Part shown: positions 3,553 through 52,957 of the stretch, in pieces
Position numbering within the stretch: the stretch's first letter is position 1
How the letters are laid out: each line of letters starts with the position of its first letter
DNA from: a virus
Direction: 5' to 3' (one strand)
Virus record (IMG/VR): IMGVR_UViG_3300046542_000291
Location: 51,641-115,640 of that record
DNA: 64,000 bases
Notes under the pieces: generated by a model
Seen by the model: the letters and a program-made list of their open reading frames with translations, nothing else
Database searches by the model: none
Told to the model about the DNA's origin: nothing
Made by a program: the position numbers and the translations under genes

Positions 3553-3606
3553 ACGTGATCGGAACCTTCGGGTTCCGTTTATGCCCACCAACAAAGAGTA
3601 ACTAAA

Positions 3607-9803: not shown

Positions 9804-10307
9804 TTATTGATAGTGAGTTAACCCATCGCTCCCCAACGTCCCGCCTGACAACGAACTGGTGCCTAACAACAGTTCGATAATGCGCTGCTGCACATCGTCG
9901 TACATCGACTCGTTGGCCAGGGCGCTAGTGCCATCTGTAAAGTTCATGAGATACTTTACACCTACCTTCCCACCACCGTATTCCCCAGCCCCTGCTTCAA
10001 AATGGATCAGTGTTTCACCCGCTCCAAATTTAGGAGCGCAGAACCGGGTGAACGGAGCCAGTTGTCCAAAGGCACTCATCACGAAGATGACCTTCTCGTT
10101 TGCTTCAACGAGGTTTCGCATTCTCGCAACATGGGCTTGGTTGCTTTCCCACTTCACCAACCATTCGTCATACATCCGACGAAGTTCTGGACCGGCAGAG
10201 GAAGGTGGTTTATCGAAGACCCGTTGTGAACGCAGGTATTCCTCAACCTCATCGTACTCCTTACGTAAGTCGGTGATGGCTGGGTACTGTAGAATGAAAC
10301 GTTCCAT
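9804..10307 (-). CDS. hypothetical protein (167 aa)
   Basis: ORF-track ORF trimmed to internal ATG with GGGGG RBS; TAATG overlap with upstream gene. Confidence 0.55.
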   Translation of the reverse strand: MERFILQYPAITDLRKEYDEVEEYLRSQRVFDKPPSSAGPELRRMYDEWLVKWESNQAHVARMRNLVEANEKVIFVMSAFGQLAPFTRFCAPKFGAGETLIHFEAGAGEYGGGKVGVKYLMNFTDGTSALANESMYDDVQQRIIELLLGTSSLSGGTLGSDGLTHYQ

Positions 10308-10480
10308 TACTTTACCCCCACTTGCGTAGTAGCAATGGCAATGCATGCCAACATAGCCAGGTTGGTGTAGAAAAGGTACTTACGTGTTTGGCTATCCGAT
10401 GAACCGTTGATCAGGTGGAACACGGTCAACAATCCAATGAACCCCCAAACCGAAAACAGTTGATCAATCACTGCGGGCAT
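10307..10480 (-). CDS. small membrane protein (57 aa)
   Basis: ORF-track 10307..10549 trimmed to ATG with GGGAGG RBS; start overlaps stop of upstream gene. Confidence 0.4.
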   Translation of the reverse strand: MPAVIDQLFSVWGFIGLLTVFHLINGSSDSQTRKYLFYTNLAMLACIAIATTQVGVK

Positions 10481-11959: not shown

Positions 11960-12382
11960 CTAAACGATTGGATCATGGCCAACGGGTTCAACCGTGGTCC
12001 ATGCCAGATCAGTCGGTGTAATGAGTGCCTCACCCAAACGGATGAGAGACTCTGTTCGTAGGTATTGATGATTCACGATATTGAACCGACCACCCACCGC
12101 ATGTTCATATTGCTTGAACAAACGATTGATAGCCAGATCCCGATCCGATTGGACCTCGTCGTCTTTCCGAGGAAGCGGCCGTTCATCTTCAGGCCACAGT
12201 ACAATAAAGCGGTAGTTGTCTACACCGTATTCCACGTGGTATGAATATTGATGCACGTTGAAATGTTCGCACTCCAGTTCGGTGTACGATTCGATAGTTG
12301 TCGTTGACTCACCAGTTAAAGCATTAAACGAGGCAAGCCTACGTCCCTTGGTTGTATCTACGATAACCAGGCTGGCCGACAT
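11960..12382 (-). CDS. hypothetical protein (140 aa)
   Basis: ORF-track ORF. Confidence 0.55.
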   Translation of the reverse strand: MSASLVIVDTTKGRRLASFNALTGESTTTIESYTELECEHFNVHQYSYHVEYGVDNYRFIVLWPEDERPLPRKDDEVQSDRDLAINRLFKQYEHAVGGRFNIVNHQYLRTESLIRLGEALITPTDLAWTTVEPVGHDPIV

Positions 12383-13038
12383 TACGCGGCCACTGCTTGG
12401 CGGTTGTGCTTGTTGCGGGTACGGATCACTTCACGGGTCAGTTGAATCTGCACTTCTTCCGAGAAGATCTCCGGGAATGCCCGACTCAACGCCACCGCAG
12501 CCATTTCTTCAGCTTGCTGGATGTCGATGTAGTTCGTCAGGATGATCCCGCGGTGATAGATGAAACAGTGGTGCCAGCTACCGTTCAGGTACAGGTCACC
12601 TTCGAAACCACCATAGGTGAGGGTTTCGTCGTTAGGACCGTCGCGGTACACATCCAGCTGTACGTTGCGATCCATGTGCATTTGCAGCAGGTCATTGCCC
12701 GTACCACCGAAGATGGTCGGACGCTTACGGCCGGTTACCACGTCCTGGATGGAATCCATCAGGCGAGGCAGTTCAGAAACCAGCTCCTGGAGATCACAAG
12801 CTTTGCTCATGGCATCCATGAATCGTTTGGCCAGGAAGTCGTACTCCGGGCCAGTCCACTGCCGTTGTTCGGCAGCGATGATGTGTACGCCGAACCAAGC
12901 ATAGCCGTTGGCATGCTTTGCCTTCACACAGAGGTGAGGGATGTTGTCTTCACCCGACTGATGATTCGTGGTGTAGTTTTCGATGCGTTTGATGACCAGG
13001 GTAATCAAACCCTTTTCGTCGATAATTTGAGTAGACAT
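12382..13038 (-). CDS. hypothetical protein (218 aa)
   Basis: ORF-track ORF; GGAACC RBS region. Confidence 0.6.
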   Translation of the reverse strand: MSTQIIDEKGLITLVIKRIENYTTNHQSGEDNIPHLCVKAKHANGYAWFGVHIIAAEQRQWTGPEYDFLAKRFMDAMSKACDLQELVSELPRLMDSIQDVVTGRKRPTIFGGTGNDLLQMHMDRNVQLDVYRDGPNDETLTYGGFEGDLYLNGSWHHCFIYHRGIILTNYIDIQQAEEMAAVALSRAFPEIFSEEVQIQLTREVIRTRNKHNRQAVAA

Positions 13039-13867: not shown

Positions 13868-13876
13868 GTAATATAG
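13868..13876 (-). promoter_or_regulatory. conserved promoter-like motif CTATATTAC (minus sense), 67 nt upstream of the 13801 start
   Basis: One of five near-identical copies, each 25-45 nt downstream of a UUCG hairpin. Confidence 0.5.
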
Positions 13877-26728: not shown

Positions 26729-27052
26729 TTAATCAACTTCCACGCCAACTTCCGAGATGGAAGCGGTGGAGATGATTTCGGTCGTACCGAATATGGCTTG
26801 GTTAAAACGGTTGAACATGTACTCGTGCATTTCCTCAGAGCGGTCATAAACAATTCCATCCGCTTTGCCATCAATGTGGACAAACCGGTAGGTGACCAAC
26901 TCCGGTAGAAGATGATCAATGGTCAGGACGATCTTTTGAAAGCCGCGCATGTCCACCCCATAAAGAGGAGAACCTTGCCCGAGAATGGTAGTGACATTCA
27001 CAACCTTAGCCGTGAGGTCTTTGTTGAACTTACCGGTAGACTGAGATTGCAT
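26729..27052 (-). CDS. hypothetical protein (107 aa), first gene of a promoter-driven unit
   Basis: ORF-track ORF; GGAG RBS; 35 nt downstream of the CTATATTAC motif. Confidence 0.5.
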   Translation of the reverse strand: MQSQSTGKFNKDLTAKVVNVTTILGQGSPLYGVDMRGFQKIVLTIDHLLPELVTYRFVHIDGKADGIVYDRSEEMHEYMFNRFNQAIFGTTEIISTASISEVGVEVD

Positions 27053-27086
27053 ATGTAACTCCTGTTTTCTGGTTTAGATTCACAAA

Positions 27087-27095
27087 AGTAATATA
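27087..27095 (-). promoter_or_regulatory. conserved promoter-like motif CTATATTAC inside a 41-nt block nearly identical to 42685-42725
   Basis: Same motif as the other copies. Flank TTCAAAGCATTTAAAAGCCTATATTACTTTTGTGAATCTAA is near-identical to the copy at 42685-42725. Confidence 0.55.
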
Positions 27096-27134
27096 GGCTT
27101 TTAAATGCTTTGAATGTACAAAAAGAAAATGGCA

Positions 27135-27158
27135 TAAGGCCTCCCCGAAGGGAGGCTT
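27135..27158 (-). terminator. UUCG-loop hairpin CATAAGGCCTCCC-CGAA-GGGAGGCTTTATG (13-bp stem)
   Basis: Repeated hairpin family; follows the stop of the Big_2 protein gene; T-rich on the minus strand afterwards. Confidence 0.6.
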
Positions 27159-27163
27159 TATGT

Positions 27164-27703
27164 TTAAGCGGTAACGGTAACAGTCTTGTCGACGCTGTAC
27201 TTGCCAGCTTCTGCAACAGTGATAACCGAAGTACCAGCAGCAACACCGGTAACCAGACCGCTCGAAGAGACGGTGGCTTTGGCCGGGGTAGCCGAGGTGT
27301 AGGTTGGAGCAGGGGTGTACGCTTCGCCGTTCTTGGTAACGGTCAGGACGAGTTGTACAGTACCAGCAACAGCAACCGACGGAGTAGCCGGAGCCAGAGT
27401 GGCGACGTATACATCAACCTTTGGCTTCACCGAGAAGGCAACGACAACGCGTTTGGCTTCCTGGATGACTTCCACGTCTTTCCAGCCGGCTGCTTCGATG
27501 GCTTCTTTGAGGGAAGCCTGAGCAGCGGTGGTCAGCTGAACGCCATCGGCGATGACGCGCAGGTTCGGGTTGTCGATTTCGGCGTTGGTGACGTAGTCGA
27601 CGGTAGTTTGTTTGGTCAGGTGAGCATTGATTGCCGCTTCGATAGGACCAACGTCCAGGGCGACGCGGGCAGCAATGGCATCAGCTTTGTTCAGTACAGC
27701 CAT
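27164..27703 (-). CDS. Ig-like (Big_2-type) domain protein, possible virion surface/decoration protein (179 aa)
   Basis: C-terminal ATVSSSGLVTGVAAGTSVITVAEAGKYSVDKTVTVTA is a textbook bacterial Ig-like group-2 motif. Ala/Val/Thr-rich. GAGGAG RBS. Confidence 0.6.
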   Translation of the reverse strand: MAVLNKADAIAARVALDVGPIEAAINAHLTKQTTVDYVTNAEIDNPNLRVIADGVQLTTAAQASLKEAIEAAGWKDVEVIQEAKRVVVAFSVKPKVDVYVATLAPATPSVAVAGTVQLVLTVTKNGEAYTPAPTYTSATPAKATVSSSGLVTGVAAGTSVITVAEAGKYSVDKTVTVTA

Positions 27704-27894
27704 GTTGAAACTCCTCAAATGATGCATTCACAACGAATACATAAGATCAGGTAAAAGCCGCTTCAACGTGGTTAACTGACACCGCTAAGACGGGTCACAC
27801 CCATATAAAAAGTCCCGATGGCTAGCATCGAGAGTGGTCCACGGTATTCAAACGCGAGGACCGCTATCTTGTAAAACATGTTTCGTTCGATCAC

Positions 27895-28242
27895 CTACGT
27901 GTTAATGGATTCAGCGAATGCTTTACCCAGACTACATAAGGTGATATCGGTATCGCTGAAGTCAGCGTTGATCATGACTTCACCACGGAGCATTACAATC
28001 TCGCGTGCGTCTATGACATCGAATACCGTTTGAGCACCTTCCTTCAATCCATCTGCATAAGCGGCTTTGGCCTCGTCACTTCCACGATCGGTGGATTCTA
28101 CGGCCGCTTTATCAGTAAGGGAATCGACGACAGCCCCGAGCAACCGGGTTTGCTGTTCAAGGGACTCTTTCTTCTGTTCTTCTTCCAAGTCATTCAAGAT
28201 CTTGATAGCCTCTTGAAGACCGTCTGACATCATGAGTGACAT
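27895..28242 (-). CDS. paralogue family member (115 aa), C-terminus ...SLGKAFAESINT
   Basis: GAAGGA RBS; N-terminus MSLM; shares a ~40-aa core (AYADGLKEGAQTVFDVID...) and the C-terminal tail with 5-6 neighbours. Confidence 0.6.
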   Translation of the reverse strand: MSLMMSDGLQEAIKILNDLEEEQKKESLEQQTRLLGAVVDSLTDKAAVESTDRGSDEAKAAYADGLKEGAQTVFDVIDAREIVMLRGEVMINADFSDTDITLCSLGKAFAESINT

Positions 28243-28259
28243 GATAATACCGTCCTTCT

Positions 28260-28613
28260 TTACGTGTTGATTGATTCAGCGAAAGCCTTCGCCAGGCTAA
28301 TGCGGTGATGATCGTCAGTCGTGTAATCGATGTTGATCAGAGCCTCGCCCTTACCCAGAATGATGTCCTGCTCGTCAATGACTTCCAGAGTTTTGATAAC
28401 CCCTGCACGCAGACCCTCATTATAAGCTATCGCTTCGTATTGGTTAATGAAACCGCCGTTGTCGTGTTTCCCATCGACGAGTACATTTGACAGTGAACCC
28501 AGGAACGTTGTTTTCGCTGCTCCTGCTACAACCATCTGCTCACGCTCTACCCGTTCGAGGATGTCCACGGCACGTTGAAGGTCAGCTTTGTTGATTGGGC
28601 GCATTAGGCTCAT
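28260..28613 (-). CDS. paralogue family member (117 aa), C-terminus ...SLAKAFAESINT
   Basis: ORF-track 28260..28676 trimmed to the MSLM start with GGAG RBS. The frame stays open up to 28676, so the start is uncertain. Confidence 0.55.
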   Translation of the reverse strand: MSLMRPINKADLQRAVDILERVEREQMVVAGAAKTTFLGSLSNVLVDGKHDNGGFINQYEAIAYNEGLRAGVIKTLEVIDEQDIILGKGEALINIDYTTDDHHRISLAKAFAESINT

Positions 28614-28742
28614 GGTGTTCGTCTCCATAGACAGGTAGGCAATACCTACACTTCTTTTTGTCGGAGCACACCCCAATGATTTCCATCAAGGGTGCACTTC
28701 TATTGAGACGGCTGTCGAGTTTATTCGGCAACCACGCCAGAC

Positions 28743-29003
28743 TCAGCTATTGATTGCGTCAGCGAACGCTTTGCTGAGTTTGACGCTCTCGTTGATTACA
28801 CCAGCCGGGGAGACCAGTTGCAGGCCGACGGTGTCGATGACTTCCAGTACATGGTTGACACCGAACAGGCTACCAGCAACAAAAGCCGCTTTGTCGTGGT
28901 CGCCGTTGTTGTCTGCAGCCGATTCAGTTACAACGCCAACAGCGGCGATGAAAGCAGCTTGATCGACAGCCTGGTCTTCGGTAGTGGTGATTACGTCGTT
29001 CAT
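28743..29003 (-). CDS. paralogue family member (86 aa), C-terminus ...LSKAFADAINS
   Basis: AGGAG RBS; shares core and tail. Confidence 0.6.
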   Translation of the reverse strand: MNDVITTTEDQAVDQAAFIAAVGVVTESAADNNGDHDKAAFVAGSLFGVNHVLEVIDTVGLQLVSPAGVINESVKLSKAFADAINS

Positions 29004-29068
29004 GCGGTAAAACTCCTGGGTACTACTGCTAATGGCCTCTCTCGGTAAAATCCGGAGAGTGATTTGTT

Positions 29069-29554
29069 TTACGTATTGATTGCGTCAGCCCAGCATTGGC
29101 CGAGACTGATGAGCGTTTCGTCGTCGTTGTAATCCACGTTGATTGGGGTTTCCCCATCCATCGTAGTTACAATGAGTTTTCGTTTGTCGAGTGCGTTGAA
29201 CACTACACCCGCGCCTTCTTTCAGACCGGCTTTGAAGGCGACGTACGCTTCCGGGTTGCCTTGAAAGAACGTCCCGGTATTGCCTTTTTCTTGAAGATCT
29301 TCGATGACCTGCGTCATCAACCGCGTTCGTTCAACACCTGTGGTTTCGTTGTAAGCTGTTTCAAGATCACGGAGCTTCTGCTCTATGCGCTTATGCTCAT
29401 CCGATTTTTCAACAACAACCGTCATCGTTACCTCCGGCTCTGGTTGTATCACGCCTTGCATGAGTTGAATGTTAGCCCAGGTTGCCCCGAGCAGTTCTGC
29501 GATTGGAAAAGGGGCCGGGGTAGCCGGAACCAAATCCGAACAACTGTAGTTCAT
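29069..29554 (-). CDS. paralogue family member (161 aa), C-terminus ...SLGQCWADAINT
   Basis: ORF-track 29069..29572 trimmed to the ATG that overlaps the upstream stop (ATGA) and has a GGGAGGA RBS. Confidence 0.6.
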   Translation of the reverse strand: MNYSCSDLVPATPAPFPIAELLGATWANIQLMQGVIQPEPEVTMTVVVEKSDEHKRIEQKLRDLETAYNETTGVERTRLMTQVIEDLQEKGNTGTFFQGNPEAYVAFKAGLKEGAGVVFNALDKRKLIVTTMDGETPINVDYNDDETLISLGQCWADAINT

Positions 29555-30042
29555 GTATTGATGTCCTCCCACAGATTACTAATTATCCCCCAAACCGGAT
29601 TATGGTAATCATCGACCAAGTCAAGGTGACCCTGTAGGATTGTTACTGTGTCCGAGATAGATGTCTGAATACTTTCCTCGACCAGTGGCATAACCATGGC
29701 GTGGAGTTCTTTAGGCAACTGATCCTGGACAAATGTCGCTTGTGACTTGAAGAGGTCTTGTAACTCATCCCGTATAGGTCCTAAGACCGGTGACACACTT
29801 TCGTATGCATACCACGGGGCACTGCCGTCGGACGGGGGAGGTTCTACGCCTAGTTTTTCATAGGCCACCCGAATTGCCGGGTCAAGCCACTCATCTGGTT
29901 CGAGGTCCTCATCGGGCTCTACCATTACGTGCTCATCCCACGGCAAATCTTCATCACCAACGTCGTCTTCAAAGTCCCGACGAAAGTCCTCCTCGTCATC
30001 CATGGCATTGCCAAGCATGATCCCATCCAACGACATGTTCAT
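29551..30042 (-). CDS. acidic paralogue family member (163 aa), C-terminus ...IISNLWEDINT
   Basis: Asp/Glu-rich; ATGA overlap with both neighbours; divergent but recognisable tail. Confidence 0.55.
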   Translation of the reverse strand: MNMSLDGIMLGNAMDDEEDFRRDFEDDVGDEDLPWDEHVMVEPDEDLEPDEWLDPAIRVAYEKLGVEPPPSDGSAPWYAYESVSPVLGPIRDELQDLFKSQATFVQDQLPKELHAMVMPLVEESIQTSISDTVTILQGHLDLVDDYHNPVWGIISNLWEDINT

Positions 30043-30344
30043 GAATTAATCGCCTCTACAAACGCGTCTGCGATGTCTTCGAGGAATGGGAAGCAACCCA
30101 TATCCCCAGGCGATATAAACGCCAGCTGACAGCTGGCCTCTATCGTACTGCAGGTTCCGATTACAGCAGAGTGGATGGCGTCTTGTGCACACTCCTTCAC
30201 CCATTTGGTAGCATCATCGTTGATGTCCCAAAGAGCGCAGATGCGGTCATTGTTGATGAACTGTTCCACCGCAGCAGATGCTACGCCTTGCAGTTCACTA
30301 ACCAAGTCTTTCTTGCCTTGGGCGAGAATTTCATTTTCCATCAT
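30039..30344 (-). CDS. paralogue family member (101 aa), C-terminus ...IADAFVEAINS
   Basis: GAGGTG RBS; shares tail. Confidence 0.6.
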   Translation of the reverse strand: MMENEILAQGKKDLVSELQGVASAAVEQFINNDRICALWDINDDATKWVKECAQDAIHSAVIGTCSTIEASCQLAFISPGDMGCFPFLEDIADAFVEAINS

Positions 30345-30378
30345 TCACCTCTAGAGTATCACTCTGATAGGTATTTGT

Positions 30379-30651
30379 TTACAGGGTCAATAGTGGCCCC
30401 TTACCGTTGTGGATAGTAATCCCACCTTCACTGAGTTCTACCCGGTTACGTTCCAACCAATCCAGGGCATGTTGCACGCCCTGCTTGATCCCTTCGGCAA
30501 CATCACCATTGGGATCGGGTACTTTGGGCTGTGGTAAAGCCCGCAGTTCGTTTAGCAACGCTGAACGGCGATTAGATGTTGGTGTCTTTACAGTCACCAA
30601 TCCATGCGCTTCCAGCGTTGCCAGAAATGGATCATCTTCAACATCCTTCAC
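30379..30651 (-). CDS. hypothetical protein (90 aa)
   Basis: ORF-track ORF. Confidence 0.5.
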   Translation of the reverse strand: MKDVEDDPFLATLEAHGLVTVKTPTSNRRSALLNELRALPQPKVPDPNGDVAEGIKQGVQHALDWLERNRVELSEGGITIHNGKGPLLTL

Positions 30652-30985
30652 GGAGCGCTACTCCCGTCACGACTTGAATGAACATCTCCTTGCGTTCCCG
30701 TTCGTCCGTTAAAGGACCAACGTAAAACACCAAGTGAGGTTGTCCGGTAAAGTCAGGCTGCATGTATTCAGTGTACGCAATCCCTGCAGCCACTAAGTGA
30801 TGCCGACGACGATTGGCTGTGCGGTTAGGGCACATGTCTTCATCGGCCAGCATATAGAAGCTGTGCTCTCCATAAGAGAACTTCCCTTCCCCCTCACAGG
30901 GTTCGGTTGGAGGCAATCGCCACCAATCCTGTTTAACAGAGCCGTCGTTAACGACCCCCATGTATCCGACTGAGTTCAATGGCAT
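30638..30985 (-). CDS. hypothetical protein (115 aa)
   Basis: ORF-track ORF. Confidence 0.5.
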   Translation of the reverse strand: MPLNSVGYMGVVNDGSVKQDWWRLPPTEPCEGEGKFSYGEHSFYMLADEDMCPNRTANRRRHHLVAAGIAYTEYMQPDFTGQPHLVFYVGPLTDERERKEMFIQVVTGVALREGC

Positions 30986-31505
30986 TGGCCCGTGTTTCCT
31001 TTTTCAGCATGTGGTTACTTGAAACCCGCAGATGGTAATGCAACCCACCGTTAACCCAGGAAGAGATCTTGTCGTCAAACCCAAACGAGTTCAGGACTTG
31101 CTCCGCCAATTCGGCATCCACGTAGAACCACACCTGGGCTATCCCTTGTGGAGTCGACCAGATAATCGAGTTCTCACCGTCGATGACTGTATAACCCGCC
31201 ACGTGATTACCAGCTACGTAATCTTGACACCACTGGGCAATCAACATTGGTAACTTCGATGGTGGGTGGTTTGGATGACGGGGAATGTCACAGGCAGGAC
31301 CCATGTACGTGTAGTACGTACCATCCGTCAATTGACCATTGGCTTGGTCAAAAATACCACGACCTTTCAGTTCACGGATCTTACGGAGACCATCCTCTTT
31401 AGTTCGGTAGAGGTATACCGTTCCAGTCATCGGTGACGAGTCGGTAACAGTGACTTGGGTCAACTGCTCTACTTCGTTCCGAATAGCGATCGCCTGTAGG
31501 ATCAC
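30948..31505 (-). CDS. hypothetical protein (185 aa)
   Basis: ORF-track ORF. Confidence 0.55.
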   Translation of the reverse strand: MILQAIAIRNEVEQLTQVTVTDSSPMTGTVYLYRTKEDGLRKIRELKGRGIFDQANGQLTDGTYYTYMGPACDIPRHPNHPPSKLPMLIAQWCQDYVAGNHVAGYTVIDGENSIIWSTPQGIAQVWFYVDAELAEQVLNSFGFDDKISSWVNGGLHYHLRVSSNHMLKKETRANAIELSRIHGGR

Positions 31506-31536
31506 AGTAGCTTCCTTTTATAGTAGACGGCATAGA

Positions 31537-31556
31537 GCTACTCCCGAAGGAGCAGC
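31537..31556 (-). terminator. UUCG-loop hairpin (GCTACTCC-CGAA-GGAGCAGC, one mismatch)
   Basis: Hairpin family; directly after the SPFH gene. Confidence 0.45.
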
Positions 31557-31568
31557 ACTACACGTGGA

Positions 31569-32429
31569 TCAGTTGCCGCCGTTGAAGACTTTGTTGCTCA
31601 TGCCGGGGGTACCGAACGCTTGGTACGGTGCGAACACCACGTTCTTGTTCTCCGCCATCAGAGCTTGAACTTTCAGCGCTTCGTACGCCAGCAGATTCGG
31701 GCTGATACCCGCCGCCGTGATTTCGTTTTGATCGCGCAGAGTGCGAGCAACAGTCAGATCGATTTCACGTTGTGCTTGAGCCAGCTTCAGCGAGTTTTCA
31801 CGCTTGACCATTTCAATGGCCTGCTGGTTTTCTTCGGTCTTGATCGCCAGTTCACGTTCGGACTGTTTCTCGATCGCCTGCGTGATCACGTCCGGATACT
31901 TCAGATTGGCCAGGGTAACGTTGGAGACTTCCAGAGGAGAGTTCGCCATCGCTTCTTTCAGCTTGATCTGAAGATCTTTGTTGATCTGATCGAAGTTGGT
32001 ACCGACGTCTTCGGTGCGATATTTTCCAACGACAGAGCGAGCCACGGTTTGAACCATGTCACGGCCGTAGACACCGTACACCTGTTGCAGCGATACCAGG
32101 TTGTCTTGCACCTTGATGTCGTTGAACATGGAGTTGATGGTCTTGTCACCACCGCCGATACGAGTACGGAAACGGATCTCGAACTGGAGATCCATCCGAT
32201 CGAGCATCTTCACCCGCATCGTTTCCGAAACGGTTTGCGTCGACGTATCGAGCAGAACCAGTTCTTCACGCATGCCGATGGTGTACTTGCCGGTTTGCTT
32301 CACTTCGGTCGAGTAGCCATCAGGCGACAGGATTTTGCCGAGGTGTGCAGGGGGAACGGTCACGCGGTTGCAACCAGCGACTGCCAGCAGGCACAGCGAA
32401 ACGATCAGCGCTTTGATTCCGTACTTCAT
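31569..32429 (-). CDS. SPFH/band-7 (prohibitin/HflK-like) domain lipoprotein (286 aa)
   Basis: Signal peptide with lipobox LAVAG-C. Characteristic SPFH region (...VTLANLKYPDVITQAIEKQSERELAIKTEENQQAIEMVKRENSLKLAQAQ...) with coiled-coil tail. Confidence 0.75.
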   Translation of the reverse strand: MKYGIKALIVSLCLLAVAGCNRVTVPPAHLGKILSPDGYSTEVKQTGKYTIGMREELVLLDTSTQTVSETMRVKMLDRMDLQFEIRFRTRIGGGDKTINSMFNDIKVQDNLVSLQQVYGVYGRDMVQTVARSVVGKYRTEDVGTNFDQINKDLQIKLKEAMANSPLEVSNVTLANLKYPDVITQAIEKQSERELAIKTEENQQAIEMVKRENSLKLAQAQREIDLTVARTLRDQNEITAAGISPNLLAYEALKVQALMAENKNVVFAPYQAFGTPGMSNKVFNGGN

Positions 32430-32770
32430 TTAGCATTTTCCTTAACAGCGTTTTCGAGGGTTTTCTTGAAGCTTTCTTCCGCAGAAGCTTTGTTGGTACC
32501 GGTGGTAGCAGACGCCTTTGGTTCAGGCACTGTGTAATCCGGAGCATCAAAGCTTGCCCGAGGCAGAGAACTTTGCTTGTGACCGATGTTGACGTTCCAG
32601 GCAACCAGTACGGCCAGCGCAATCACCGAAATCCATACCCGCTGAGGCTTACCCAGCTGGACGATTTTGTTCTTGGTGAAGATGAGCCAACCACTGACCG
32701 CCAGGGTAAGTACCAGGTCAATAACGAACTTAACCGGGCTACCGGAGAAGTACATTGCGAAGAGATCCAT
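32426..32770 (-). CDS. small two-TM membrane protein (114 aa), possible NfeD-like partner of the SPFH protein
   Basis: Two hydrophobic helices then a soluble Lys/Ala-rich tail; 4-nt overlap with the SPFH gene start. The partner role is inferred from the usual SPFH-NfeD operon architecture. Confidence 0.5.
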   Translation of the reverse strand: MDLFAMYFSGSPVKFVIDLVLTLAVSGWLIFTKNKIVQLGKPQRVWISVIALAVLVAWNVNIGHKQSSLPRASFDAPDYTVPEPKASATTGTNKASAEESFKKTLENAVKENAK

Positions 32771-32833
32771 GGGATTCCTTAGAGTGTGATGTCAGAGGGC
32801 TAGTAACACAGTATGACTAAGCCCAGTATTTTG

Positions 32834-33055
32834 TTACCGTAAAGCTTTTGCCGTAATGAACCTTACATTTTTGGTCCTGGCCATGAAACCTTTTACCCGG
32901 TCAGCCATAGCCCGTATTTCTTCCTTGGAGGGCTCACATGCTCTCTTTGGCAGAAAGGCGCTGTCAGGGTAGTCCACAATCACAAAACCGTTCACAATGC
33001 TTACAGGGCAGTTACCGAGCAACATAGGCCACCTATGAGTTAATGGAAGCAGCAA
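32834..33055 (-). CDS. hypothetical protein (73 aa)
   Basis: ORF-track ORF. Confidence 0.4.
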   Translation of the reverse strand: MLLPLTHRWPMLLGNCPVSIVNGFVIVDYPDSAFLPKRACEPSKEEIRAMADRVKGFMARTKNVRFITAKALR

Positions 33056-33302
33056 ACGCTTCCGAGATCAGGCCGCCATCACGAATGATGCCTTCGTTAG
33101 CCAGGGTATCCACGGCAGTCCACATGGCCAGACCGATGACGTTGGTCACGATGTTCTCCACCCGCTTTTGTACTTCTGGATCATCGAAGCGGAAATGGCA
33201 CCGGCTGTCTGTGGCGTAGTTCTTAACCAGGTGATCTTTTGCCTTGGTCAATTGCTCAACCATTTTAGCACTGTCGTCAACTGGTTCATCGTTGTCGTGC
33301 AT
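33033..33302 (-). CDS. paralogue family member (89 aa), C-terminus ...ISEAFAASINS
   Basis: ORF-track 33033..33434 trimmed to ATG with AGGGGAA RBS located just after the stop of the upstream gene. Confidence 0.55.
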   Translation of the reverse strand: MHDNDEPVDDSAKMVEQLTKAKDHLVKNYATDSRCHFRFDDPEVQKRVENIVTNVIGLAMWTAVDTLANEGIIRDGGLISEAFAASINS

Positions 33303-33312
33303 GTCGTTCCCC

Positions 33313-33672
33313 TTAGGAATTAACCATTCGGAAGTGTTCGCACAGATTGCCCGCGATACTGGCGTTCTCTTCAACGAACGGGAGCCAGTTACCACCAGCT
33401 TCGATCGCTTCCTGTTTTTCAGTTTCGCCCACATCGGGCATCATGTTGAAGCCTGGGCAATTGGGATGATCGCCATCCAGGATCATGAAGATCCGGTCGC
33501 ACATGCCCGTAGCTACCGCCAGTGCCAGCTCCGCCGAATCATCGATGGCCTGAATGGCCGGAGAAGCCAACAGGTCGTCGCGTTCTGCTTTCACCGTATC
33601 AATGAACAGTTCGGTGACTTCACTGAAAGCAGCTTCACGGGATTGACCATTACCTTCGAAGTACACAGTCAT
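33313..33672 (-). CDS. hypothetical protein (119 aa); C-terminus ...CEHFRMVNS, possibly a distant family member
   Basis: Trimmed to the ATG that overlaps the upstream stop (ATGA). Confidence 0.5.
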   Translation of the reverse strand: MTVYFEGNGQSREAAFSEVTELFIDTVKAERDDLLASPAIQAIDDSAELALAVATGMCDRIFMILDGDHPNCPGFNMMPDVGETEKQEAIEAGGNWLPFVEENASIAGNLCEHFRMVNS

Positions 33673-34007
33673 GGTTTTGCTCCTTCGGTCCACTGTTTGA
33701 AGTAGTCCGAGTTATTGCCTTGGACATCCCGGAGTTTACCGAGAAGGCGTAAATCGCTAATGCCACCCAGCGAGTTACGGCAGGAAGCATGGTGCTGTTC
33801 TTGTAACACCGCTTTCCGCTCCAAGGTAACGTAGGTAATGGTTACCTTACCGTTGGTGCCAGTGCGGTTAAGCCCATAAGCCACGTAACCTTCTGCTTCA
33901 AGCGCTTTGTTAATAAGTGCATTGAACTCGGTGGTTGCATCGGACATGGTTACATGGTAGTAACCATCCTCCACCGGGAATTCTTTGTACGAGTCGATGT
34001 TAAGCAT
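33669..34007 (-). CDS. hypothetical protein (112 aa)
   Basis: ORF-track ORF. Confidence 0.5.
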   Translation of the reverse strand: MLNIDSYKEFPVEDGYYHVTMSDATTEFNALINKALEAEGYVAYGLNRTGTNGKVTITYVTLERKAVLQEQHHASCRNSLGGISDLRLLGKLRDVQGNNSDYFKQWTEGAKP

Positions 34008-34009
34008 CG

Positions 34010-34333
34010 TTATTGCCCCTGTTCTTCTTGCTCTTCCACAAAGCGCTGGTCATCCAGAGCAATAGTCAACGTGTGGCGGCCACTGTCTTCATCACGCGTC
34101 CAGACGTAGTTCCAACCGGCACTCTCCAACAGCAGATTAACCCGATCACGCAGTTTCTGACGCATTGGAAAGGTCAGATCGAAACGCCAGGTGGGTTCAA
34201 CGCGGGCATCGACCCTGTCGTCAGCTACCGTCTCTTTGCAGATACGTGCGATTAACGCTTGATACTTCAGTTCATCCACGTGTTTTTGGATGTACTCTTT
34301 GGTGGGAATCGGGAATGCTACAGCATCGGACAT
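34010..34333 (-). CDS. hypothetical protein (107 aa)
   Basis: ORF-track ORF. Confidence 0.5.
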   Translation of the reverse strand: MSDAVAFPIPTKEYIQKHVDELKYQALIARICKETVADDRVDARVEPTWRFDLTFPMRQKLRDRVNLLLESAGWNYVWTRDEDSGRHTLTIALDDQRFVEEQEEQGQ

Positions 34334-34345
34334 TACATACTCCTG

Positions 34346-34864
34346 TTATGACTGTTGAGGGCCAGGTTTAATAGTTTTGAGTTTCTTGATGAGGTCCTGT
34401 TCAATGCCTTCTTCGGCATCGTCCATTAACTCGTCAAGCGTATAAGCGAACATTGACTTGTCGTAGGTGCCTTCCGGCACACGGACGGTATTGGGTACGA
34501 ACAACATCACATCAAACAAATCGTGCTCATCTCGGAACTCGCCTAGATTATGAGCGGTCAGAGTAGAAGAGTGCATCTCACCGTATTTCAGTTCAAAGGT
34601 CGGGCCATCCTTATTGAAGTCTAAGCTCCAATCCTGAAAGGCGAAACCGTAACGATCTGGATCAGCGCGTGCTGTCGTAACGTCAGCATCAGATACGTTC
34701 TTGTAGCTGGCGTATCGATCGAAGAATTCTTTACTGAATGCTGAGACGTAGGCTAATTTTCCATCACCTCCGAAAACATACATCTCTGGGTACACACGTA
34801 ACTCAAGCGGACCGTCGTTGGTTGCCCATACTCCTTTTATGACGACAAGCTTTTGGTAGCTCAT
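34346..34864 (-). CDS. hypothetical protein (172 aa), first gene after a promoter motif
   Basis: ORF-track ORF; AGGAAG RBS; 28 nt downstream of CTATATTAC. Confidence 0.55.
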   Translation of the reverse strand: MSYQKLVVIKGVWATNDGPLELRVYPEMYVFGGDGKLAYVSAFSKEFFDRYASYKNVSDADVTTARADPDRYGFAFQDWSLDFNKDGPTFELKYGEMHSSTLTAHNLGEFRDEHDLFDVMLFVPNTVRVPEGTYDKSMFAYTLDELMDDAEEGIEQDLIKKLKTIKPGPQQS

Positions 34865-34891
34865 AGGAAGTTCCTTTTTGGTTGCCTGGTA

Positions 34892-34900
34892 GTAATATAG
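34892..34900 (-). promoter_or_regulatory. conserved promoter-like motif CTATATTAC
   Basis: Flank CATTTTATTTCAGATCTATATTACTAC is shared with the copy at 52949. Confidence 0.5.
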
Positions 34901-34935
34901 ATCTGAAATAAAATGGAGTAAAAAAGAAAAAAGTA

Positions 34936-34957
34936 AAGGCCTCCCCGAAGGGAGGCT
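34936..34957 (-). terminator. UUCG-loop hairpin GGCCTCCC-CGAA-GGGAGGC(TTTATG)
   Basis: Hairpin family; directly after the stop of 34966..35418. Confidence 0.55.
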
Positions 34958-34965
34958 TTATGTGG

Positions 34966-35418
34966 TTATGGGGCTTTAGCAAAGTTACGTTTCATTGCCT
35001 TAGCGGGTTTACCCACCATACCGGCACAGCCAATCTTAGTTGCCCTGTTAACAGCATCGGGGTAAGACACGCCAGCCTGAACTTGTTTAGCGATGACTGG
35101 GTTACCGAGCATGGAAACAATGTTGGCATCAAAACGCATTGCCATGTTAGTAGCTGCCCATCGGTCATCGTTGGCCGCTTCCGCCGCGGTGAGGTCAACC
35201 AACGCGGTAGTTCTTTCGTCAGCGTTTTTACCGTCCATGTACCATCGAGTGATTAATGTAGTCAACTCGGTGTAACGCTTGCAGGTTAGTGGGGTGATAG
35301 TGAGGTCGACGTCAACTTCAGTATCGAGACTTTGTACGACCCGTGGAGTGTCGTTAGCCGAAGCCAGACCCGTGAGGAACAACAGTCCTACGATCATGAG
35401 TGTAATTACGTTTTTCAT
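34966..35418 (-). CDS. secreted/periplasmic protein (150 aa)
   Basis: N-terminal signal peptide (MKNVITLMIVGLLFLTGLASA); paralogous to 35456..35890. Confidence 0.55.
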   Translation of the reverse strand: MKNVITLMIVGLLFLTGLASANDTPRVVQSLDTEVDVDLTITPLTCKRYTELTTLITRWYMDGKNADERTTALVDLTAAEAANDDRWAATNMAMRFDANIVSMLGNPVIAKQVQAGVSYPDAVNRATKIGCAGMVGKPAKAMKRNFAKAP

Positions 35419-42699: not shown

Positions 42700-42708
42700 G
42701 TAATATAG
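42700..42708 (-). promoter_or_regulatory. conserved promoter-like motif CTATATTAC inside the duplicated 41-nt block
   Basis: Near-identical to 27071-27111. Confidence 0.55.
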
Positions 42709-44600: not shown

Positions 44601-46001
44601 TTATTCTTCGTCGTCTTTCTTCTTTTCCAAATACTGAGTACTTACAGCTTTAAAGCTGAACACTCGGTCGGTGCACTTGAACACCAGTCCTTCGCGGTAA
44701 GTTTTCTTCGGTTGTTTCGGATCGACATTGAACGCACGCGGACCTTCAGCCATCAGGAGAATATCCTGAATAGTAGTGCCCACCGGAATAACAAACTTCT
44801 CATGCATGACCGGGACGTAAGGAAGGCCGATGGCAGCACATACACCACGAGCTTCTTCCGGCAACAACTCCTGGCTACCATTGCGGTATACGCTGTAGAC
44901 ATGGTATTCAACATCTTCCACGCCTTCGAAGCCAGACTGGATATCTGGACCGATCAGCTCGCCTTGAACAGTGATGTATTCACCTGTCTCTTCCTGGTAC
45001 GCCTTCAGCTTCTCAACCACCTTGTTCTTGGTGACGTAGCGGGTGAAGTTCCGGGAGGTGCTGTCGCCAATACCGGTGTTGGCTTTCCATTCAGGGACGT
45101 GAAGGTTGTTCATACGGAACGCCCATTTGCCATCTTCGTCCTTGAAGAACCACGACTTCGGTTTTAGGAAGTTGCGGTTGCGCGCCAGGAGGGTACCGAT
45201 CCAGTAACGGATCTGATCTGGTTTGGACCATTCCTCGTCACCGATAACCAACTCGTAGTTACGCGAGCAAACGCCAGTACGAACACCACCATCATCCAGG
45301 CAGAATACCGTCATGGAGCTACCGTCGAGTTTCCAGGTAACTTCGAATTCAGTGCCTTCCGCCTTTGCCGCTTCGAACGCGACTGTCTTGTTCTGGATAC
45401 GATCCTGATCAGACTTGAGCAGTTGCTTCGGCCATGGCAGGAGAGCATTACCCACGTTACCGAGGATCTTACGTACCAGACGCATGTACCAGCCAGAACC
45501 AGCTGCAGCCTGTTGCGCCGGCGACATGAGTGGCTTGGCTGCAAACTTCAGGATGCCCAGCTCCAACGTCATGTTGGTTTCAGCTGGAAGGTCTTTGTAT
45601 TTCTCTGGGAGTGGTACAACCAACCCCTGGGCCAGCTCCTTACGAAGACGGAGCGTGCGCAAACGGTGATAAGCCTTACCGTTGATCAGGCGGTTATCGG
45701 AACGGCGTGCCTCGAGGAACCCGAACAGTGGGTTATCGATTGGCAACAGCGAGTCGATCTCGCAGTACACCACACGGTCACCCTTCTTGTATTCGTCCAG
45801 CTTGACCACGCACTGCCAGCCGCCGATGATTGCCAGAGACAAGGCATCAGCATTTGGATGTTTGATCACGTCGTCAAGTACGACGATACGCGCCAGTTTG
45901 CGGTCGGTTTCAACCACCCCGTTCCCCTCACGGATTGGTTTGAGTTCAGCAGCTACATCGGGGGTAGCGGTTGCGACTTCGATCTTTTCTACGACAGACA
46001 T
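44601..46001 (-). CDS. ATP-dependent polynucleotide (RNA/DNA) ligase with an N-terminal OB domain resembling tRNA-binding (Myf/EMAP-like) domains, 466 aa
   Basis: Nucleotidyltransferase motif I WKLDGSS (KxDG) and motif IV EGLVFK. N-terminus (ARIVVLDDVIKHPNADALSLAIIGGWQCVV...KKGDRVVY) follows the HP.AD.L pattern of tRNA-binding OB domains. Confidence 0.75.
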   Translation of the reverse strand: MSVVEKIEVATATPDVAAELKPIREGNGVVETDRKLARIVVLDDVIKHPNADALSLAIIGGWQCVVKLDEYKKGDRVVYCEIDSLLPIDNPLFGFLEARRSDNRLINGKAYHRLRTLRLRKELAQGLVVPLPEKYKDLPAETNMTLELGILKFAAKPLMSPAQQAAAGSGWYMRLVRKILGNVGNALLPWPKQLLKSDQDRIQNKTVAFEAAKAEGTEFEVTWKLDGSSMTVFCLDDGGVRTGVCSRNYELVIGDEEWSKPDQIRYWIGTLLARNRNFLKPKSWFFKDEDGKWAFRMNNLHVPEWKANTGIGDSTSRNFTRYVTKNKVVEKLKAYQEETGEYITVQGELIGPDIQSGFEGVEDVEYHVYSVYRNGSQELLPEEARGVCAAIGLPYVPVMHEKFVIPVGTTIQDILLMAEGPRAFNVDPKQPKKTYREGLVFKCTDRVFSFKAVSTQYLEKKKDDEE

Positions 46002-46017: not shown

Positions 46018-46266
46018 TTATTGCAAAGGTTTGCAGGTTACAGTGATTTTTGCCATACGGCTCGACAGTGCGCCACCATCGACTCTCGATTCAACGTAGT
46101 CTTTGGTTTCTTTGACGAGGTAAGGCTTCATGCCGTATGTCTCTACGACTTGTTCAATTGCGGCTGGACACGTGTTGGCATCTGACAGTTCTGTGACTGT
46201 TGGTGCACCACCAGGTCCTGCGCCTGTATTGAACGCAAATGCGATAACAAGTAACGCTTTCATCAT
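46018..46266 (-). CDS. small secreted protein (82 aa)
   Basis: Signal peptide MMKALLVIAFAFNTGAG; two Cys. Confidence 0.5.
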   Translation of the reverse strand: MMKALLVIAFAFNTGAGPGGAPTVTELSDANTCPAAIEQVVETYGMKPYLVKETKDYVESRVDGGALSSRMAKITVTCKPLQ

Positions 46267-51392: not shown

Positions 51393-51405
51393 TACTTTGT
51401 TTTCC

Positions 51406-52948: not shown

Positions 52949-52957
52949 GTAATATAG
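52949..52957 (-). promoter_or_regulatory. conserved promoter-like motif CTATATTAC
   Basis: Flank shared with the copy at 34892. Confidence 0.5.

Follow-up and report, generated by a model that had tools for sequence, protein, structure and literature searches.

Why do eight small neighbouring genes of a giant phage end in nearly the same few residues, and what might such an ending do? The question arises in a stretch of 64,000 nucleotides (the window, meaning the whole of the DNA analysed) from a 310-kb chimallivirus, a nucleus-forming jumbo phage distantly related to Pseudomonas phage Psa21. An initial annotation described here a small tandem family with a common C-terminal end, and the family is real: eight minus-strand ORFs, all in a single operon, lie within 27895-33672, each at the coordinates first given for it, and all eight tail-bearing ORFs are contained in less than 6 kb of one strand. 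From high to low coordinates, the features of the locus are as follows.

34939..34956, minus strand: terminator-like hairpin and T-run (GCCTCCCTTCGGGGAGGC then CTTTACTTTT), closing the preceding transcription unit just 5′ of the operon promoter
34892..34899, minus strand: TATATTAC promoter motif heading the operon, of the phiKZ/201phi2-1 type
33313..33672, minus strand: member, 119 aa, tail EHFRMVNS; orthologue of phiKZ gp258, 201phi2-1 gp369 and PhiPA3 gp306
33033..33302, minus strand: member by tail only, 89 aa, tail EAFAASINS; body unlinked to any subfamily
30039..30344, minus strand: member, 101 aa, tail DAFVEAINS; joins the large superfamily with tails masked
29551..30042, minus strand: member, 163 aa, tail NLWEDINT, very acidic N-terminal half; recruited with tails masked
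29069..29554, minus strand: member, 161 aa, tail QCWADAINT, core tandem group c0; closest to Psa21 gp346
28743..29003, minus strand: member, 86 aa, tail KAFADAINS, core tandem group c0 (tail-masked BLAST, alignment)
28260..28613, minus strand: member, 117 aa, MSLM start, tail KAFAESINT, core tandem group c0 (tail-masked BLAST, alignment)
27895..28242, minus strand: member, 115 aa, MSLM start, tail KAFAESINT, core tandem group c0, last of the array (tail-masked BLAST, alignment)
27813..27833, minus strand: terminator-like hairpin and T-run (TCTCGATGCTAGCCATCGGGA then CTTTTTATAT) between the last family gene and the Big_2 gene; a consensus match only
27164-27727: downstream gene with a Big_2 domain, by domain match

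Much of the first description of these genes stands. Two members do start with MSLM, GGAG-like ribosome binding sites are present, and ATGA stop/start overlaps are found at 30042-30039 and 29554-29551, plus 33672-33669. The member singled out as highly acidic (29551-30042) has a net charge of -33, and in fact all eight proteins are acidic, with pI values of 4.05-4.94. The ORF at 33313..33672, listed only as a possible member, belongs to the family both by its tail and as an orthologue of PHROG 11061.

The common ending is far from what chance would supply. Exactly these eight of ~570 ORFs in the window (stop-to-stop, ≥50 aa, six frames) end in [IV]N[ST], where 0.46 would be expected from the frequency of the tripeptide itself within the same ORFs (Poisson P(≥8) = 3e-8); adding an aromatic residue at position -7 brings the expectation to 0.14 and P to 4e-12. 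The tail had been called an almost invariant octapeptide, which is too strong, since all that is common to the eight is an aromatic at -7 (or -6) followed by [IV]-N-[ST]. The codons of the tail vary synonymously (ATC/ATT, AAC/AAT, and AGC, TCA or TCC for Ser), so selection is on the protein; a nucleotide motif or a translation-frame artefact, the latter raised at the outset as a possible undoing of the family, is rejected on the same ground. No unrelated enzyme among the other ORFs of the 64-kb window carries the tail.

In relatives, the signature can be written aromatic-[FW]-x-x-[IVL]-[NS]-[STN]-COOH; a looser form, aromatic-x-x-x-[IVL]-[NS]-[STN]-COOH, fits all eight window ORFs and 127 unique sequences in relatives. 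Among those 127 sequences the last three positions hold 2.7-3.3 bits of information each, the highest of the last 14 residues, and the two polar end residues hold ~3 bits each. The position of the chain end is also conserved. For example, in gp258-type proteins, which end in Y-[FW]-x-x-[VI]-[NS]-[SN], the stop codon lies exactly two residues past the Ile/Val in 49 of 50 orthologue clusters. Longer ends do occur: phiKZ gp258 has two residues beyond the motif (VNRG), and 201phi2-1 gp370 carries an extension past it. The tail of 33033-33302 is identical to that of Psa21 gp346. The tails are amphipathic, with helical moments of 0.27-0.60.

Whether the bodies are related as well as the ends was addressed by alignment and by iterative HMM searches from which the last 9 aa of each protein had been removed. 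Seeded from one subfamily, such a search recruits 45 of 1190 ORFs, comprising 40 with the tail, five neighbours with degenerate tails and no unrelated protein; 30039-30344, 29551-30042 and the gp258 type are among the recruits, and 30039-30344 is reached by profiles seeded from both the c8 and c2 subfamilies. Most subfamilies are thereby linked, with the four tandem copies forming a group apart. These c0 genes (27895/28260/28743/29069) recruit 17 tail-bearing relatives of 17 with tails masked, and their bodies are homologous to Psa21 gp346, gp350, gp351 and gp352; tail-masked BLAST of 29069-29554 gives E values of 8e-18 to Psa21 gp346 and 2e-17 to 27895-28242. A core of ~40 aa had been proposed for the whole array; by tail-masked BLAST it is common to the four tandem genes in 27895-29554, but not to the rest. 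With tails masked, no significant link to the remaining subfamilies was found for the c0 genes together with the gp351/352 type (hhalign E 0.11), nor for a group ending in WxNDINS, and 33033-33302 found no relatives at all. These three sets may have acquired the tail convergently.

One member bears on the importance of the chain end. The ORF at 29551-30042, which is also homologous to PhiPA3 gp308, encodes by itself a domain that Tepukevirus-like phages carry inside larger fusion proteins. In these fusions, present in L002, L006, L009, L010 and L012, the domain is N-terminal to another, and its internal copy reads NLWDTQTRN, with N-L-W kept and I-N-[ST] lost. That these residues disappear once the end becomes internal suggests a role for the free terminus as such.

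All eight genes fall within a lineage-specific superfamily of Pseudomonas-infecting Chimalliviridae, whose proteins are small (80-220 aa), acidic and mostly helical. Small genes with the tail lie at syntenic loci of Tepukevirus-like, Pawinskivirus, Phabiovirus, PhiPA3, 201phi2-1 and Viktualia phages, with 8-9 members in Psa21, 5-9 in each of eight Tepukevirus-like metagenomic phages, seven in Phabio, six in PS119XW, five in PhiPA3 and four each in 201phi2-1 and Viktualia, while phiKZ keeps essentially one. Each Tepukevirus-like genome has a single copy of almost all subfamilies, arranged alike. Across genera, both the number of copies and the set of subfamilies differ widely; in the window, c0 is present four times and c2, c3, c5 and c6 are missing. 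The most widespread branch is that of phiKZ gp258 and 201phi2-1 gp369 (PHROG 11061), of which 33313-33672 is an orthologue at 33-46% identity; its residues 2-119 align to profile positions 1-123 (E 3e-22). This type is found by tblastn in 63 Pseudomonas phage records, forming 50 orthologue clusters; none of the other seven window ORFs matches PHROG 11061 at E ≤ 1. The remark that the family was not recognisable from described ones is borne out, as searches of Pfam-A, NCBIfam, PADLOC and PDB sequences gave no match above threshold, and the one PHROG is of unknown function. For the phiKZ gp258 family, the literature and databases yielded only transposon tolerance and RNA-seq counts, with no function, structure or paper found.

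The regulatory setting of the array is that of an early operon. The promoter motif reported at 34892 is confirmed (TATATTAC, 34892-34899); the window contains five such sites, each of them on the minus strand, against 0.47 expected, and the others show the same hairpin/T-run/promoter layout as the one heading this operon. Its extended context fits the 201phi2-1 consensus printed in Table 2 of PMC7058600, and motifs of this type are ascribed to early genes and the virion RNA polymerase. It also precedes the family-bearing operons of Psa21, 201phi2-1 and phiKZ, and the position of 33313-33672 is orthologous, in a TATATTAC-headed operon of the accessory arm of Pseudomonas chimalliviruses. The NAMPT, thymidylate synthase, RNA ligase and SspB-like neighbours are syntenic with those of Phabio, 201phi2-1 and Viktualia. 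At the distal end, the array does lie upstream of a gene with a Big_2 domain, as first noted, but a terminator-like hairpin at 27833-27813, the probable 3′ end of the early operon, separates that gene from the last member.

Structure prediction, put forward initially as a check on the tail, points to a folded end. The AlphaFold model of 33313-33672, built with 50 orthologues, is helical and confident (pLDDT 88.3, pTM 0.74), and in it the tail is an ordered helix at the end of the chain (residues 110-118, pLDDT ~86, in a model of pLDDT 88) in which Y113 and V117 match the core residues A54, I58, G60 and L62 in conservation. From model confidence and conservation together, we infer that the tail packs against the central helix. 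A low-confidence model of 28260-28613 (pLDDT 65) gives the same order of elements, namely helix 9-48, helix 58-81, hairpin 84-93 and a terminal helix 102-116. In these models, the tail looks like the ordered last helix of a common fold rather than a detachable address label. Of note is that a purely structural role fits poorly with the ~3-bit polar ends and with the exact stop position in 49 of 50 clusters.

Experiments on relatives give further indications. Two datasets place 8 and 28 transposon insertion sites, respectively, in PHIKZ258, which lies within the largely non-essential orf184-304 arm of phiKZ, while most phiKZ virion proteins appear essential (PMC12676376). In PhiPA3, GFP fusions of gp313 are diffuse in the cytoplasm and those of gp308 form cytoplasmic puncta (PMC10643120, Supplementary Table 3). 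Had the GFP been attached C-terminally, it would have masked the tail. In the same study, proximity labelling with nuclear RecA as the source enriched gp313 in two of three trials (log2 fold change 3.3), and gp308 appears in both the RecA and ChmA proximity lists (PMC10643120). Psa21 gp352, a relative of the tandem group, bears a YhfG-type Fic-inhibitory motif (RNFQASSKLEG) before the family domain (25.3 bits against a cutoff of 22.6), so the scaffold can carry an inhibitor module; the match in P0003 is borderline at 22.3 bits against the same cutoff. A search of the window in six frames found no S/T-x-x-x-E-G/N motif of this type.

Taken together, these observations are best explained, with about an even chance of being right, by an expanded superfamily of early accessory binders built on a shared scaffold that is closed by the tail helix. 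The family would have grown by tandem duplication inside one operon with an early promoter of the virion-RNA-polymerase type. The scaffold would start with an N-terminal helix, continue with a central one bearing small residues along it (A/G-x-x-x-G ... [IL]-[DE]) and close with the tail, a short amphipathic helix at the C-terminus in which the aromatic pair and the Ile/Val would form the buried face, the Asn/Ser at -2 would cap the helix and the chain would end one residue later. Specificity would come from variable N-terminal segments and hairpin insertions, with the scaffold and free C-terminus held constant. We infer a binder or inhibitor role for the paralogues, which would act in the cytoplasm, in stoichiometric fashion, on different host or defence proteins as their targets. 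The earlier suggestion of diversified effectors or anti-defence proteins survives in this form: tandem expansion is observed, and the effector reading is reasonable given the early-type promoter, the dispensable gp258 and the fusion with a Fic motif.

A possible, if unlikely, alternative is that the free C-terminus, aromatic-[FW]-x-x-[IV]-[NS]-[ST]-COOH, is a recognition peptide read by one phage or host receptor, which would dock, localise or co-regulate early effectors at, for example, the early infection vesicle, the nuclear shell or an import or turnover factor. The information peak at the last three of 14 positions, the chain end at the motif in 49 of 50 gp258 clusters and in 40 of the 45 body-recruited relatives, the sharing of the tail by groups without detectable body homology, the internal copy without I-N-[ST], and the proximity of gp313 to nuclear RecA and of gp308 to RecA and ChmA are all consistent with it. 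However, the tail is predicted to be helical and ordered with a confidence similar to that of the whole model, it occurs on no unrelated cargo among the window ORFs, phiKZ gp258 tolerates its two extra residues (VNRG), 201phi2-1 gp370 has an extension beyond the motif, and the gp313 and gp308 GFP fusions are cytoplasmic, neither nuclear nor on the shell. Nuclear cargo, moreover, is chosen via folded-surface residues and not terminal signals, according to a review (PMC12908238). The portable address or packaging tag first envisaged does not fit an ordered helix that is found only on this set, most of whose bodies are homologous without the tail. Mimicry of the chimallin tail, the C-terminal segment by which ChmA docks into neighbouring protomers, was also considered and is excluded because the ChmA C-termini of phiKZ, Psa21 and PS119XW (..GTWY, ..GMMY and ..GTLY) are unlike the family tail. 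It seems rather improbable that the free C-terminus is a linear signal specific to Pseudomonas chimalliviruses, with one reader that places, times or destroys early effectors; an import, export or shell-associated factor, the early infection vesicle or a protease adaptor could be that reader.

A single hetero-oligomeric early complex built from the paralogues, with their C-terminal helices bundled as the interface, is doubtful. Such co-assembly would accord with co-transcription, with the coupling of several genes via ATGA overlaps, with the amphipathic tail helix and with the ordered, nearly complete set of subfamilies in each Tepukevirus-like genome; yet the complement differs widely among genera, phiKZ makes do with essentially one member, and a single-chain model already places the tail confidently.

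A common degron, read directly or via the SspB-like product of 60320-61087 and sending spent early proteins to ClpXP, is very improbable. Timed clearance of early proteins is a plausible need, and SspB-like homologues exist in Psa21, PS119XW, PhiPA3 and Phabio. The call for 60320-61087 is itself weak, with PHROG matches (8945, E 3.6e-4; 25970, E 1e-6) and a sub-threshold Pfam SspB match (E 0.018; 15.5 bits against 27). ClpX C-degrons end non-polar, e.g., LAA, and in the ssrA system SspB reads an AANDENY-like sequence, whereas the tails inspected end in polar N-S/T without LAA-like or AANDENY-like segments and are predicted to be folded, not flexible. SspB-like genes also occur in phiKZ (gp232), 201phi2-1 (gp347) and Erwinia phage RAY (gp039), far beyond the range of the family, so the two are not co-distributed.

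Packaging as internal or ejected virion proteins, with the tail as a capsid address in the manner of T4 internal proteins, is the most improbable of all: chimallivirus heads do hold many small internal proteins, and the Ig-domain protein directly downstream has an N-domain homologous to 201phi2-1 gp382, but the 201phi2-1 record, which flags gp382 as a virion protein by mass spectrometry, flags none of the family members gp369, gp370 and gp376-378, the promoter is early-type with a terminator-like hairpin before the Big_2 gene, the PhiPA3 relatives are cytoplasmic, gp258 is dispensable where most phiKZ virion proteins appear essential, and known capsid-targeting sequences are N-terminal and cleaved. 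The address-tag, degron and virion readings are weakly supported or contradicted.

Nucleus-forming jumbo phages are a main model of viral compartmentalisation in bacteria, and ~70% of phiKZ genes, dispensable under laboratory conditions, have no known function (PMC12676376). Several dozen hypothetical genes per clade are now grouped in one superfamily with an easily recognised signature, spanning Tepukevirus, Pawinskivirus, Phabiovirus, PhiPA3, 201phi2-1 and Viktualia, with a reduced form in phiKZ, and cultured phages carry experimentally tractable members. If these are scaffolded inhibitors, as the Psa21 Fic-antitoxin fusion suggests, the array would be a candidate list of anti-defence or host-takeover proteins; should the free C-terminus prove to act as a signal, it would be a new code for sorting or turnover, and the first terminal one on record in nucleus-forming phages. 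Under either reading, the tail is a cheap experimental handle.

Among known proteins, the closest are phiKZ gp258, 201phi2-1 gp369 and PhiPA3 gp306, of which 33313-33672 is a full-length orthologue with the same TATATTAC-operon position and ending, in a branch linked by tail-masked profiles to several other subfamilies. PHROG 11061, however, matches one window gene of eight, and phiKZ has essentially one copy, with the VNRG ending. The T4 internal proteins (IPI-III, Alt) are likewise dissimilar small proteins with one short terminal motif in common. The T4 capsid targeting sequence is N-terminal, ~10 residues long and cut by the prohead protease, and its bearers are late virion proteins; in contrast, the window motif is C-terminal and predicted to be helical and folded, on early-operon proteins whose relatives are not flagged as virion components. 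The ssrA degron resembles the tail as a short conserved extreme C-terminus at which the position of the carboxylate matters, in a genome with an SspB-like gene, but differs in that the window tail is polar at its last two residues, is predicted to be structured and is not matched in distribution by SspB-like genes. Class I Fic antitoxins (YhfG, VbhA; PF10832) share their S-x-x-x-E-G inhibitory-helix motif with Psa21 gp352, P0003 and P0004, all relatives of the window's tandem group, although the motif is absent from the window and the family domain itself is unrelated to YhfG. Finally, the array resembles early accessory regions, such as phiKZ orf184-304 and the early regions of T4 and T7, in being small, acidic, non-essential, early, tandem and variable in copy number. 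The early accessory and anti-defence arrays of large lytic phages usually consist of unrelated genes, whereas the members found here keep a common chain terminus across at least six phage genera.

In Pseudomonas chimalliviruses, a set of small acidic proteins whose genes lie behind early-type promoters forms a real superfamily, and apparently an undescribed one. In the window, eight ORFs on the minus strand (27895-33672) encode products of 86-163 aa that end in KAFAESINT (two ORFs), KAFADAINS, QCWADAINT, NLWEDINT, DAFVEAINS, EAFAASINS or EHFRMVNS. In a six-frame set of stop-to-stop ORFs no shorter than 50 aa, these eight and no other end in [IV]-N-[ST], whereas 0.46 such endings are expected from the tripeptide frequency in the same ORFs (P for eight or more ~3e-8). 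Requiring an aromatic residue at -7 as well lowers the expected number to 0.14 (P ~4e-12). The codons for the last three residues differ synonymously, and selection therefore acts at the protein level. Serine is written as AGC, TCA or TCC, and this use of both AGC and TCN rules out a nucleotide-level signal or a frame artefact as the origin of the tail.

The initial annotation had described a near-invariant terminal octapeptide; what all eight proteins have in common is the last three residues and an aromatic residue near -7, and nothing more. Its ~40-aa core is likewise present in the four tandem genes at 27895-29554 (27895-28242, 28260-28613, 28743-29003 and 29069-29554; the tandem group) but absent from the other members. 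Also as described, MSLM starts are present, ribosome binding sites are GGAG-like, and genes overlap by ATGA at 30042-30039 and 29554-29551. The member singled out as very acidic has a net charge of -33, and acidity is in fact common to all eight (pI 4.05-4.94).

Whether the tail is a shared tag or the end of a shared fold was addressed by cutting the last nine residues from 1190 ORFs of 13 loci before iterative profile searches. A tandem-group seed then recruited 17 sequences, every one of which carries the tail. A seed of the PS119XW gp311 / 201phi2-1 gp376 type grew to 45 sequences, with the tail present in 40 and no unrelated recruits; the remaining five, which include phiKZ gp258 and 201phi2-1 gp370, are neighbouring genes whose tails are degenerate or extended. 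This larger group includes window genes 30039-30344 and 29551-30042 and the gp258 type, that is, 33313-33672 and its orthologues. The bodies of most subfamilies are therefore homologous. Profile-profile comparison of the two groups gave a non-significant E of 0.11, with the best local alignment lying on both central helices, and tail-masked profile comparison linked neither the WxNDINS group nor 33033-33302 to either of them. Two phiKZ proteins with similar endings, gp241 (3078-3407 of the phiKZ locus, ..NYRVVNR), reported as the activator of the Juk defence (PMC12676376), and gp242 (3519-3956, ..EYFLRAVNKF), were not recruited with tails masked, and their endings are therefore probably coincidence.

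The window is part of a 310,396-bp metagenomic contig, and among isolates Pseudomonas phage Psa21 (Tepukevirus, Chimalliviridae) comes closest to it. Psa21 has eight members in its syntenic block (gp339, 340, 342, 343, 346, 350, 351 and 352), with one more further downstream. Eight Tepukevirus-like metagenomic phages, whose loci were picked by a conserved SPFH lipoprotein gene as anchor, have 5-9 members per locus, all on a single strand. Slightly relaxed endings brought in members from PS119XW, Phabio, PhiPA3, 201phi2-1 and Viktualia.

Relaxed endings of family members in four relatives
PS119XW: ..YFESVNT, ..LFEGVNT and others
Phabio: ..YFRVVNT, ..LWDDIST, ..YFEEISN
PhiPA3: ..QLFNDISN, ..AFWNAVSN, ..SFFDEISN
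201phi2-1: ..LYFEEVSN, ..LLWEAVSN

Window gene 33313-33672 is an orthologue of phiKZ gp258, 201phi2-1 gp369 and PhiPA3 gp306 (PHROG 11061, E 3e-22). Across 50 orthologue clusters this type ends in Y-[WF]-x-x-[VI]-[NS]-[SN], which is chain-terminal in 49; the phiKZ cluster alone has two extra residues after it. The information content of the tail over 127 unique sequences is 3.25 bits at -3 (V/I), 3.24 at -2 (N/S), 2.74 at -1 (S/N/T) and 2.49 at -7 (Y/W/F), values biased upward because the motif itself gathered part of the set. In PA7, a 44-aa ORF (12312-12446 of its locus) copies the N-terminus of the PS119XW gp309 type (MTIYFEGTGEPRAATFSEVRDLF...) and then stops; from its sequence, this phiKZ-like genome apparently once had a second paralogue of the gp258 type, of which the ORF is what remains after decay.

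AlphaFold gave a confident model of 33313-33672 from 50 orthologues (pLDDT 88.3, pTM 0.74), with helices at 16-35, 38-41, 46-65, 83-91 and 110-118. The last of these is formed by the tail (pLDDT ~86); a terminal helix predicted to be ordered does not support the address or degron tag that had been proposed. In the orthologue alignment, tail residues Y113 and V117 match A54, I58, G60 and L62 of the central helix in conservation. A low-confidence model of 28260-28613 (pLDDT 65) has the same order of elements: long helix, central helix, hairpin and terminal helix. The tandem-group alignment is invariant at G71, N94, I115 and N116 only, and shows a G-x-x-x-G pattern in the central helix. Judged by pLDDT and conservation, the tail would lie with its aromatic/aliphatic side against the small residues of the central helix, and Asn/Ser would cap the helix. 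The reading we prefer, to which we give about an even chance, is that of a conserved helical scaffold whose fold would be closed by the C-terminal helix, and whose variable N-terminal and hairpin segments would act in the cytoplasm as binders of different host or defence targets.

Recognition of the free C-terminus by a common reader is doubtful, and draws on a fused copy of one domain. As a standalone protein, the 29551-30042 domain ends in ..NLWEDINT in the window and in ..QLFNDISN in PhiPA3 (gp308). Five Tepukevirus-like phages have it fused ahead of a second family domain, and only the latter keeps the ending, ..SW[AS]EAVNS. The internal copy reads ..NLWDTQTRNHV.., so that N-L-W is retained and I-N-[ST] is gone. 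Together with the fixed stop position, this loss suggests that the free terminus counts beyond simple helix packing, which gives a signal-type reading some weight. Assembly of different members into hetero-oligomers through their tails is a distinctly unlikely alternative. The initial annotation had proposed a degron read by an SspB-like adaptor (gene 60320-61087) or packaging in the virion. A degron read by SspB/ClpXP is very improbable and packaging marginally more so, because tail chemistry and predicted order are unfavourable to both, SspB-like genes are distributed widely, and the 201phi2-1 virion annotation speaks against packaging: in that record gp382 is marked as a virion protein by mass spectrometry, and family members carry no such mark. 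Co-distribution of the family with the SspB-like gene is ruled out, the latter being much more widespread, and mimicry of the chimallin tail is excluded.

The operon that holds the family opens at TATATTAC, an early promoter motif attributed to the virion RNA polymerase. The motif occurs five times in the window, against 0.47 expected.

13868-13875, minus strand, TATATTAC promoter
27088-27095, minus strand, TATATTAC promoter
34892-34899, minus strand, TATATTAC promoter heading the operon with all eight family genes, an operon start already proposed and upheld here
42700-42707, minus strand, TATATTAC promoter
52949-52956, minus strand, TATATTAC promoter

Each copy is preceded by a hairpin with a T-run and lies in AT-rich surroundings, the extended context being ATTTAAAAGC[C]-TATATTAC-TTTTGTG or TTTTATTT-A-ATC-TATATTAC. 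These five promoters with their context mark the operon boundaries of the window. TATATTAC is a predicted phiKZ promoter, and the AT-rich context agrees with the 201phi2-1 consensus (both Table 2 of PMC7058600); the same motif opens the equivalent operons in Psa21, 201phi2-1 and phiKZ. Within the queried 27000-35000, the sole nucleotide-level match to any phage record is 27078-27253 (Psa21, 80% over 176 nt), which takes in a T-run and the TATATTAC copy at 27088-27095 together with the end of Big_2 and the following gene's leader; conservation is thus higher in this regulatory region than in the coding DNA on either side.

The array had been placed directly upstream of the Big_2 gene (27164-27727, minus strand). 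The two are adjacent, but a terminator-like hairpin (27833-27813) intervenes, which suggests that Big_2 may form its own, later transcription unit. The N-domain of the Big_2 protein is homologous to 201phi2-1 gp382 (E 4e-8) and also to PS119XW gp320. RefSeq calls the Psa21 orthologue of the Big_2 protein (64% identity) "major head protein", a name that was probably mis-transferred by way of the Ig domain.

Other genes of the window also merit description. Midway in the family block lies a translationally coupled pair, an SPFH/Band_7 lipoprotein (lipobox LAVAGC; Pfam E 4.5e-15) and a membrane protein of 114 aa, and this phage-encoded pair belongs to an operon whose promoter is of early type. 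Psa21, Tepukevirus-like contigs and PS119XW have lipoproteins 59-62% identical to the one in the window. Identity is 61% in the 235-kb contig IMGVR_UViG_2974506819_000001, where the 20-kb SPFH locus contains no tail-motif ORF, so that SPFH pair and tail family can be separated. A possible second, loose set of paralogues in the same operons has "...L-x-E-A-G-W-x-x-V..." near the C-terminal third. Its first two window genes are placed there by eye only because they have no pairwise match at E <=0.05, and among relatives pairwise E-values are weak except for clear orthologue pairs. Finally, a cluster of genes for RNA repair and nucleotide metabolism shows synteny with Phabio, 201phi2-1 and Viktualia; its thymidylate synthase is unusually long (457 aa), with a large insertion and a PHROG match over the entire protein.

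31569-32429 and 32426-32770, minus strand, SPFH lipoprotein and membrane protein
34010-34333, 33669-34007 and the N-domain of 27164-27727, loose set in the window
gp306, gp307 and gp320 of the relative L003, phiKZ gp260.1 and Psa21 gp335, loose set in relatives
44601-46001, minus strand, RNA ligase
46266-47546, minus strand, RtcB
49611-51443, minus strand, nicotinamide phosphoribosyltransferase
56579-57952, minus strand, thymidylate synthase

The family had gone unrecognized among described phage proteins, and database and literature searches agree. Pfam, NCBIfam, PADLOC and PDB sequence profiles returned no relatives, and PHROGs matched one member only (33313-33672). Word-indexed and exhaustive searches, the latter over 1.84 billion representative proteins, gave matches within the Pseudomonas chimallivirus clade only. 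In the literature searched, no paper on gp258 or PHIKZ258 was found, and the 201phi2-1 and PhiPA3 genes turn up in tables only, the family itself not being the subject of any study found.

Published data on relatives nonetheless bear on location and essentiality. By TnSeq, phiKZ orf184-304 is a largely non-essential arm, and PHIKZ258 has 8 and 28 insertion sites (PMC12676376). PhiPA3 gp313 (YP_009217392.1, ..SFFDEISN) was enriched in nuclear RecA proximity labelling in two of three trials (log2 fold change 3.3; Table 2 of PMC10643120), and gp308 (YP_009217387.1) is in both the RecA and ChmA lists of that study. The nuclear site that RecA labelling would imply disagrees with the GFP fusions, tag orientation not established, which were "diffuse cytoplasmic" for gp313 and "cytoplasmic puncta" for gp308 (Supplementary Table 3, PMC10643120). 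A review holds that residues of the folded surface, not terminal signals, choose nuclear cargo (PMC12908238).

Relatives of the tandem group hint at a function. Psa21 gp352 (9969-10337 of its locus) and two metagenomic relatives, P0003 and P0004, share a body-homology group with the tandem group. A YhfG-type Fic-antitoxin motif, RNFQASSKLEG, opens Psa21 gp352 (25.3 bits for PF10832, cutoff 22.6) and is absent from the window; P0003 and P0004 too have an N-terminal YhfG-type motif fused to the family C-terminal domain. The scaffold is therefore able to carry an inhibitor module, and by sequence these three proteins are candidate phage inhibitors of Fic AMPylases.
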